In this document: positions 28,850 to 29,082 of the stretch, piece by piece
How the letters are laid out: each line of letters starts with the position of its first letter
Position numbering within the stretch: the stretch's first letter is position 1
Made by a program: the position numbers and the translations under genes
Source: Octopus vulgaris
Taxonomy: Eukaryota
Reading direction: 5' to 3'
Length of the DNA stretch: 64,000 bases
Assembly: GCA_951406725.2 (NCBI GenBank)
Contig: OX597829.1
Location: 40,052,001 to 40,116,000, forward strand
Notes under the pieces: model-generated
What the model was told of the DNA's origin: nothing
What the model saw: only the letters and a program-made list of their open reading frames with translations
Databases searched by the model: none

Positions 28850-29082
28850 GTAATCGCTAGACAATGTAAAGTATTATAGCCATCTCAATATGGCTAACCA
28901 CTAAGGGTGGGTGTTACTGTAGCTTTTTAGCCCCAGGAGATCATCGTCTCCAGCTGGCTTTAGACACAATTTCTGTGCCATTATGGCATTTGCAAAGGGA
29001 GGCCATCCCTTTCTCGTAAGCCTAAGTGATACGCACCGGACCGCAGTTTCGAGATTATTGTCTCTTATCAACGGGCGGTATA
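28850..29082 (-). mobile_element. Diverged relative of the 356-bp unit at 59681, with U3:A8 hammerhead (29032-29077)
   Basis: Minus: CGCCCG TTGATAA GAGA CAATAA TCTC GAAA CTGCGG TC CGGTGCG; shares TAGCCA..TGGCTA, TTTAGCCCCAGG and TTGCAAAGGGA. Confidence 0.7.

Follow-up and report, generated by a model that had tools for sequence, protein, structure and literature searches.

A non-coding hammerhead element of Octopus vulgaris, a likely retrozyme whose insertion ends suggest copying by Penelope-type enzymes

Results

Two diverged subfamilies of a non-coding repeat

The window analyzed here is a 64,000-nt stretch of AT-rich, microsatellite-laden eukaryotic DNA, to which all positions below refer. 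It contains two related insertions, A and B, that represent diverged subfamilies of a many-copy, non-coding, tandem-repeat element with a hammerhead motif. Element A lies on the minus strand (29084-28828) and is a 5’-truncated copy of the sister subfamily, extending ~257 nt from stem I of the hammerhead to the distal 3’ end (GC 44.5%). Element B, located around position 60194, consists of a forward copy on the plus strand (60083-60440) and a 5’-truncated, inverted copy on the minus strand (59678-60082). The forward copy is 358 nt long, with its first three bases repeated as its last three, and ends in (TA)n at 60439-60440. The inverted copy is longer than one unit; read along the minus strand from 60082 to 59678, it contains unit positions 277-355 followed by positions 1-325, passing from 355 into 1 without a break, and it also ends in (TA)n. 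As the forward copy is one full unit plus 3 nt, and the inverted copy is continuous over the 355/1 junction, the B unit is 355 nt long (GC 44.8%) and is tandem or circularly permuted. A corresponds to the 3’ part of its diverged sister and is ~66% identical to B; beyond the ribozyme their homology yields a local score of 107, compared to 19.2 ± 2.9 (maximum 34) for 2000 shuffles.

The B family is present, whole or in part, in 20 of the 24 listed runs (10 studies, 4 coded organisms), and four runs yielded 517, 434, 136 and 35 matching contigs. Joins between the end and the start of the unit (60437>60084 and 60439>60086) are found at low depth in two of these four runs. Within the window itself, no tandem array carrying two hammerheads on a single strand is present, and a profile search using A and B revealed no further family members. 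The non-coding status on which the initial annotation depended is upheld, as coding sequence at both loci is ruled out by their short stop-free stretches (at most 61 codons in A and 89 in B), by frame-breaking indels that separate A from B, and by the failure of all 150 Penelope-like element (PLE) type proteins to match either locus. At its 5’ end A is fused to a 31-nt 5’ piece of an abundant SINE (29085-29115, minus strand), which we take to be an octopus SINE; the first 20 nt of this piece occur in nine other copies in the window. The matching remainder of the SINE is absent on the other side of A, and the fusion may have arisen by template switching of a reverse transcriptase (RT) or by insertion with deletion.

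A hammerhead with a U3:A8 core

A type I hammerhead is identified on the minus strand of A (29032-29077) by its layout and its predicted pair probabilities. Stem I (29077-29072 with 29038-29032) pairs CGCCCG with CGG-U-GCG, leaving a bulged U, and is followed by the core U3 to A9 (29071-29065), which reads TTGATAA in the DNA (UUGAUAA, with a U3:A8 pair). Stem II (GAGA/TCTC, 29064-29061 with 29054-29051), the GAAA sequence (29050-29047) and a self-complementary stem III, AC-TGCG-GT (29047-29040), complete the motif, and cleavage is predicted after C29039 (C17). Stems I and II in A have predicted pair probabilities of 0.85-1.0. The hammerhead in B (60194-60239, plus strand; core at 60200, predicted cleavage after C60233) is built from stem I CACACG/CGUGUG, stem II AGG/CCU stacked on a U-U, and stem III AC-CUAG-GU. 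The initial annotation had reported that A shares the UUGAUAA core, the GAAA sequence and the GUC of 60194-60239; this is borne out, the two having the same layout, which is also present in the inverted copy at 59886 on the minus strand. It had further stated that all three stems differ and still pair, which is the case for stems I and II, where two-sided changes separate A from B, whereas in stem III the A-U and C-G pairs are identical and only the tetraloop differs. Both A and B carry the type I consensus, (C/U)UGAN(G/A)A, GAAA, UH and stems I-III, and on these sequence features the motif is predicted to be a self-cutting RNA.

Three hammerheads in the window (60200, 59886 and 16164) satisfy a strict definition, U3:A8 with a stem III palindrome made of Watson-Crick pairs, where 200 local-Markov simulations gave 0.005 on average; A is left out of this count solely because its palindrome uses G-U pairs. 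The match at 16164 belongs to a third, unrelated hammerhead at 16155-16260 (plus strand) with a GGTC/GACC stem II, an ACCGGT palindrome and an AT-rich tail that runs into (TA)n, indicating that more than one family of this genome uses U3:A8. U3-A8 covariation has been described in the hammerheads of Schistosoma PLEs (~1,300 hits, PMC4209133), and the pair has also been found in further hammerheads from nature, with activity in vitro (PMC3088659). Each of the two stem III 8-mers pairs along its whole length with another molecule of the same sequence (-9.7 and -11.4 kcal/mol), and Watson-Crick palindromes make up only 16 of the 256 possible tetraloops. As the two loops differ yet both 8-mers self-pair, the change between them is a dimer-type covariation; a self-complementary stem III loop is described as the mark of hammerheads able to act as dimers (PMC4209133).

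Sequence variants among the contigs support selection on the hammerhead core and stems. In one variant contig C3 and G8 are present together, along with a U4>C change of the kind reported to reduce in vitro activity (PMC3088659), and in run X2 the two bases at 60228-60229 change jointly (TA>AT, ~20% of depth) so that the stem III palindrome is kept. A8G alone accounts for 19-23% of the depth in three runs in which C3 is at 1-2%, reflecting either U3-G8 cores or contigs that end near position 3. The U-U that the initial annotation noted at the base of stem II in B, and considered a possible sign of lower activity, is indeed present. No change at 60207 or 60221 is among the variants listed for four runs, and the U-U is thus probably the norm of the subfamily and not decay. 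The axolotl HHR_Amex2 has likewise been reported with a U-U at the base of its helix II; its monomer cleaves 22% in 1 h and its dimer much better (PMC7229834).

The comparison with Rfam that the initial annotation had proposed was run, and neither locus matches a hammerhead family up to E=10, nor any other family. The Rfam hammerhead models likely miss A and B because of the variant core. Across the whole window, the 150 matches listed (of 187) are to miRNA, snoRNA and sRNA models below the gathering score and fall mostly on microsatellites. A second catalytic motif is unsupported by any Rfam family. A search with the hammerhead pattern returned no stretch in viral contigs, and the 16 stretches returned from metagenome contigs are attributed to chance, as none of them combines stem I with stem II or shows any resemblance to A or B. 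For comparison, 235 loci of the Rfam hammerhead-1 model have been counted in the giant squid, a figure given as a count only (PMC6962438).

A long rod extends stem I

To place the hammerhead in its larger context, the RNA of the B unit was folded as a circle. Its predicted energy is -112.1 kcal/mol, compared to -84.7 ± 5.1 kcal/mol for shuffled sequences, none of which (0/200) is as stable (z = -5.35). This stability originates from a long rod that extends stem I, in which 60153-60199 pairs with 60234-60280 (plus strand).

The rod can be compared with a diverged variant, record 9 of run X13 (60083-60347), which carries 39 substitutions (36 visible) and 9 gaps (8 visible), their linkage being taken from equal depth (812.8). 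Run X13 is RNA by guess only and was used for sequence variants alone. Record 9 represents a subfamily ~15% diverged, with the core bases C3, C4 and G8, that makes up most of the depth in X13 and 1-2% in the other three runs. At the core, one C3:G8 contig contributes 813 of 926 in depth, a contig depth that is not readable as expression. Mapped by hand onto the fold predicted from B alone, both sides have changed in 6 of the 77 covered pairs, and five of the six still pair (60153/60280, 60157/60276, 60170/60262, 60187/60244 and 60287/60297), the first four being located in the rod. When changes of these kinds are placed at random, 0.61 such two-sided compensations are expected (P = 2e-4, under a null that ignores indels). 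Of the one-sided changes, four preserve pairing and six disrupt it in strict register, as does the remaining two-sided change; four of the pair-breaking positions re-pair, in a comparison by hand, when the 1-nt shift from listed indels is taken into account.

These data support selection on RNA structure beyond the ribozyme, mainly on the predicted rod. The initial annotation had proposed that selection acts on a larger RNA structure, and this part of its claim is strengthened by the compensated pairs, though they lie mainly in the rod and not in the hairpins it had named. The rod was missed in the earlier comparison because A lacks the 5’ half of the unit.

Hairpins downstream of the ribozyme

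Five stems, H1 to H5, and a terminal motif are located downstream of the ribozyme, and all are given here on the minus strand of A. H1 (GGGA-N5-TCCC, 28997-29009) has a pair probability of about 1 in the truncated A. In the whole B monomer the corresponding GGA/TCC stem has a probability of 0 and the rod forms instead, because both of its strands lie in or beside the rod; in the modeled fold, it may form transiently after cleavage. H2 (TGCC-N5-GGCA, 28976-28988; 60284-60300 in B) is predicted with probabilities of 0.2-0.4 in A and 0.8-1.0 in B, and variants in its stem keep pairing, most being CpG-type transitions. H3 (GGAGA/TCTCC, 28929-28959, stem 28951-28936; 60302-60335 in B) has a possible outer AGCC/GGCT stem, which in A was found by hand, and the conserved CCTGGGGCTAAA block forms the 3’ strand of H3 together with this outer stem. 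H4 is a long-range stem at 28847-28920, ACAGTAA (28920-28914) with TTACTGT (28853-28847), that corresponds to 60343-60350 and 60417-60424 in B and encloses H5. One two-sided change separates A and B in H4. A G60348>A change is present at 92-100% of depth, and no compensating change at 60419 is among the variants listed, leaving an apparent A-C mismatch in most B-like copies; this near-fixed change counts against H4. H5 (TAGCCA-N8-TGGCTA, 28877-28896; 60375-60394 in B) is well predicted, with a variable loop and an invariant stem; being identical in A and B, the stem is uninformative, fitting a structure without proving one. The distal 3’ end, which abuts (TAA)n, carries the sequence ATCTCRTT and a TCTC-N5-GAGA hairpin (28829-28842), a candidate RT start site. 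By eye, GGCTA is seen twice in each element (60331-60336 and 60375-60394 on the plus strand; 28933-28927 and 28896-28877 on the minus strand), so that TAGCC has two possible partners and an alternative fold could exist.

The sequences of several of these hairpins are largely as first described. TAGCCA..TGGCTA and GCC-N5-GGC are common to A and B; GGGA-N5-TCC, also said to be in both, reads GGA-N5-TCC in B. The shared sequence TTTAGCCCCAGG is found without mismatch at 28926-28937 in A and at 59747-59758 in the inverted B copy, but is one G short in forward B. The reading of the named hairpins as selected structure is not supported in its original form: the GGA/TCC stem has no probability in B, the TAGCCA stem never varies, and the changes in GCC/GGC are CpG-type. 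Structure is not proven by the two copies alone. RNAalifold applied to the two rows gave GGATG, at the 3’ end, a third partner and produced eight two-sided pairs; this fold was set aside, as the pairs are fitted to the data.

We also considered that the element is a satellite propagated at the DNA level, in which case the downstream hairpins would be GC-rich conserved blocks without a selected fold. This would account for the CpG transitions in H2, for the fact that the part downstream of the cut, folded alone, behaves like shuffled sequence and is not unusually stable (z = -1.04 in A, +0.22 in B), and for the comparison of the 45 pairs predicted in B with A, of which 22 are the same, 7 show one-sided and 2 two-sided changes, 12 are broken and 2 gapped (in a sequence-only alignment whose register is not stable). 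Unequal crossover has also been invoked for tandem growth (bioRxiv 10.64898/2026.07.22.740005). A satellite origin is nevertheless very improbable, as the copies are dispersed, 5’-truncated, inverted and set in microsatellites, the C3:G8/U3:A8 core and the palindrome covary, and the compensation in the rod far exceeds expectation. For single hairpins, H1, H4 and H5 among them, it may still apply.

Insertion ends resemble those of Penelope-like elements

B lies in (TA)n with both of its 3’ ends facing outward. The forward end (60439-60440) is 33-37 nt further along the unit than the end of the inverted copy, which stops at the equivalents of 60403-60407. The forward copy therefore has a 33-37-nt tail (60408-60440, plus strand) that is missing from the inverted copy and includes the terminal motif as well as the 3’ strand of H4. 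A ends within ~5 nt of the distal end of B, at (TAA)n. These are the only three insertion ends seen, and each is blurred by TA microhomology. The flanks of A and B are microsatellite or unrelated repeats, in which no target-site duplication is seen, and the contigs contain no sites where many molecules end. PLE insertions are recognized by an inverted 5’-truncated copy, by a tail of 30-40 bp on one side only and by their (TA)n targets (PMC8557442). All three traits, an AT-rich target among them, are displayed by one insertion, B; A contributes the distal end of B and a (TAA)n target. In the lizard PLE PAc, the tail corresponds to the distance between two internal RT start sites in vitro, located downstream of the hammerhead, and the minimal active RNA likewise lies downstream of the hammerhead core (PMC11167929). 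The ends of A and B thus carry a Penelope signature that suggests copying by Penelope-type enzymes, and with PAc as precedent it is plausible, by analogy, that the conserved region contains a signal for RT recognition, as the initial annotation had supposed.

A retrozyme mobilized by a LINE (e.g. of the RTE or L2 type) would produce the inversion by twin priming and the ends by chance TA microhomology. Twin priming yields inversions with small deletions, A/T microhomology with the target is present at all three ends, and the window contains LINE RT remnants (e.g. 48359-50774). LINEs are also named among the candidates in PMC7229834. However, the insertions are without a poly(A) or simple-repeat tail of their own and show no target-site duplication, two subfamilies that are only ~66% identical share their end position, the 33-37-nt offset fits the length of a PLE tail, and both outer ends lie in microsatellite. 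We therefore regard mobilization by a LINE as improbable.

Somewhat less improbable, but still unlikely, is that A and B are solo pseudo-LTR (pLTR) remnants of an autonomous PLE, with the conserved region serving as its 5’ leader and RT start site. The PLE-like anatomy of the insertions, the presence of only part of a unit in A, the U3:A8 core described in Schistosoma PLE hammerheads (PMC4209133) and the homology of frog retrozymes to pLTRs (bioRxiv 10.64898/2026.07.22.740005) are all compatible with such an origin. Opposed to it are the join of the end of B to its own start with no ORF between, the pairing of the two unit ends as a covarying rod, and a canonical retrozyme build with a 6-bp stem I and a 4-bp stem II that differs from the minimal type with a long stem II; moreover, neither A nor B contains a long frame or matches any of the 150 PLE-type proteins. 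The preferred reading remains that of a non-coding retrozyme copied by the enzymes of a separate PLE.

Candidate helper elements in the window

The analysis turned up no PLE homologous in sequence to A or B. A decayed, 5’-truncated PLE is located in the window at 36700-34690 (minus strand), with (TA)n tracts on either side, and its own end is at (TA)n. Its RT and GIY-YIG pieces match full-length RT+EN proteins; Pfam returned nothing useful for the PLE pieces of the window, with hits on relatives of the PLE below cut-off, and a word-based protein search with its RT piece gave no match. This PLE carries a C3:G8 hammerhead of its own (~34811-34737), in which stem II is very long, and it has no evident sequence in common with A or B, differing in both hammerhead and tail. 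A minimal, PLE-type C3:G8 hammerhead with a 7-bp stem II and a palindromic stem III is found at 24360-24476 (plus strand), where it ends at (TA)n; the 250 nt upstream of 24369 match none of the 150 PLE-type proteins.

The terminal sequence ATCTCRTTYWG occurs four times in the window, compared to 0.25 expected. Three occurrences belong to A and B, and the fourth (24460-24470, 10/11 nt) ends the latter hammerhead piece. As the sequence was chosen after its matches had been seen, the match at 24460-24470 is the sole independent one; among 136 microsatellite flanks it ranks first, or about 3 in 136 given three candidates. We consider it a lead only to the partner family.

Remnants of other mobile elements were recognized by eye. 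These include LINE-type endonuclease/RT sequences at 48359-50774 (plus strand; long and slightly broken), 38161-39188 (plus) and 40464-41120 (minus), as well as sequences resembling Gypsy-type pol and Tc1/mariner transposase at 25617-27496 (plus), 8256-9151 (plus) and 18466-19097 (minus). A long inverted repeat at 20556-20738, formed by a fragment that also occurs near 32000, 40000 and 51400, gives a spurious miRNA match.

Discussion

The A/B element likely adds a new member to the non-LTR retrozymes, an established class of parasitic RNAs in animals. Metazoan members of this class have units of 170-400 nt, with examples of 350-390 bp in mussel and Rtz_353 in axolotl (Cervera and de la Pena 2020, PMC7229834). 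Like them, B is a non-coding tandem unit of 355 nt with a GC content below 50% and many copies, it has a canonical type I hammerhead with a 2-bp stem III and a tetraloop, and its predicted circle is highly self-paired; the U-U at the base of stem II is as in HHR_Amex2. This likeness rests on DNA sequence and predicted fold, while the class is one that accumulates as linear and circular RNA. In contrast to the metazoan retrozymes described there, A and B use U3:A8 as the main core form, and B takes the form of short insertions of 1.0 and 1.1 units that lie dispersed in microsatellites; one copy is inverted, the tail is one-sided and no target-site duplication is seen. We found no cephalopod retrozyme in PMC7229834, whose supplement may list some.

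The element also resembles PLEs. As in the hammerheads of PLE pLTRs (PMC4209133), the motif is of type I, has a palindromic stem III and shows U3-A8 covariation. As in PLEs including Poseidon PAc of Anolis (PMC11167929), there is an inverted 5’-truncated copy, a 30-40-nt tail, AT-rich targets and ends located downstream of the ribozyme. Unlike PLEs, A and B have no ORF, with no RT and GIY-YIG between pLTRs, and their hammerhead is canonical and not minimal. The ends also differ in position, lying ~170 and 205 nt past the cut, whereas the first start site of PAc is at ~85-92 nt (PMC11167929).

We propose that the element is a non-autonomous hammerhead retrozyme whose RNA is cut to unit length, probably circularized, and copied into TA-rich DNA by a borrowed PLE RT/endonuclease, a mechanism that we consider probable. 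Tandem copies would be transcribed by read-through. The hammerhead would then cut after C17, with two ribozymes pairing as a dimer via the self-complementary stem III loop, the stem III of each being 2 bp; the motif is present in both subfamilies. In the predicted fold the ends of the monomer pair as a ~40-bp rod, in which covariation is seen, and this would hold them for a host ligase. A PLE protein would nick (TA)n or (TAA)n DNA and initiate reverse transcription at either of two internal positions of the RNA, ~170 nt or ~205 nt beyond the cut, continuing for more than one round of the unit, as in the inverted copy of B. Priming from both DNA strands would produce the observed anatomy of an inverted 5’-truncated copy and a one-sided tail. 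In the modeled RNA, a branched domain formed by H3, H4 and H5 is positioned just upstream of the two ends and is likely a protein-binding signal. A more specific proposal, that this domain together with the terminal ATCTCRTT is a cis-signal that captures the Penelope protein and fixes the two internal RT start sites, and that the match at 24460-24470 points to the partner family, is tentative, and we think it could well be wrong.

Several components of this picture are already known: the retrozyme class, the U3:A8 core, the U-U mismatch and, from a 2026 preprint, a link to PLEs. The preprint (bioRxiv 10.64898/2026.07.22.740005) proposes that frog retrozymes derive from PLEs and are non-autonomous, and thus the same partnership as is proposed here. 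Its case is built on co-occurrence and on homology to pLTRs across 35 genomes, mostly of vertebrates and none of a mollusc, and the anatomy of insertion ends and a recognition structure are not among the arguments that we found in it. Only one of nine frog retrozyme dimers cleaved in that study. What is new here is a non-coding retrozyme insertion that carries both the tail and the inversion typical of PLEs, together with the shared end position of two diverged subfamilies. Our literature search found no paper describing the A/B family, though the supplements of retrozyme surveys may list cephalopod families. As the family escapes the Rfam hammerhead models, such elements are probably undercounted in these genomes.

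A 2020 review described animal retrozymes as being without a motif that reveals their helper and named PLEs as likely (PMC7761336). A 355-nt RNA of the B unit, together with the existing in vitro PLE assay, makes it testable which enzyme moves animal retrozymes and what it recognizes. If the signal formed by H3, H4, H5 and ATCTCRTT is real, it would supply the conserved motif that the review said was absent from animal retrozymes (PMC7761336).
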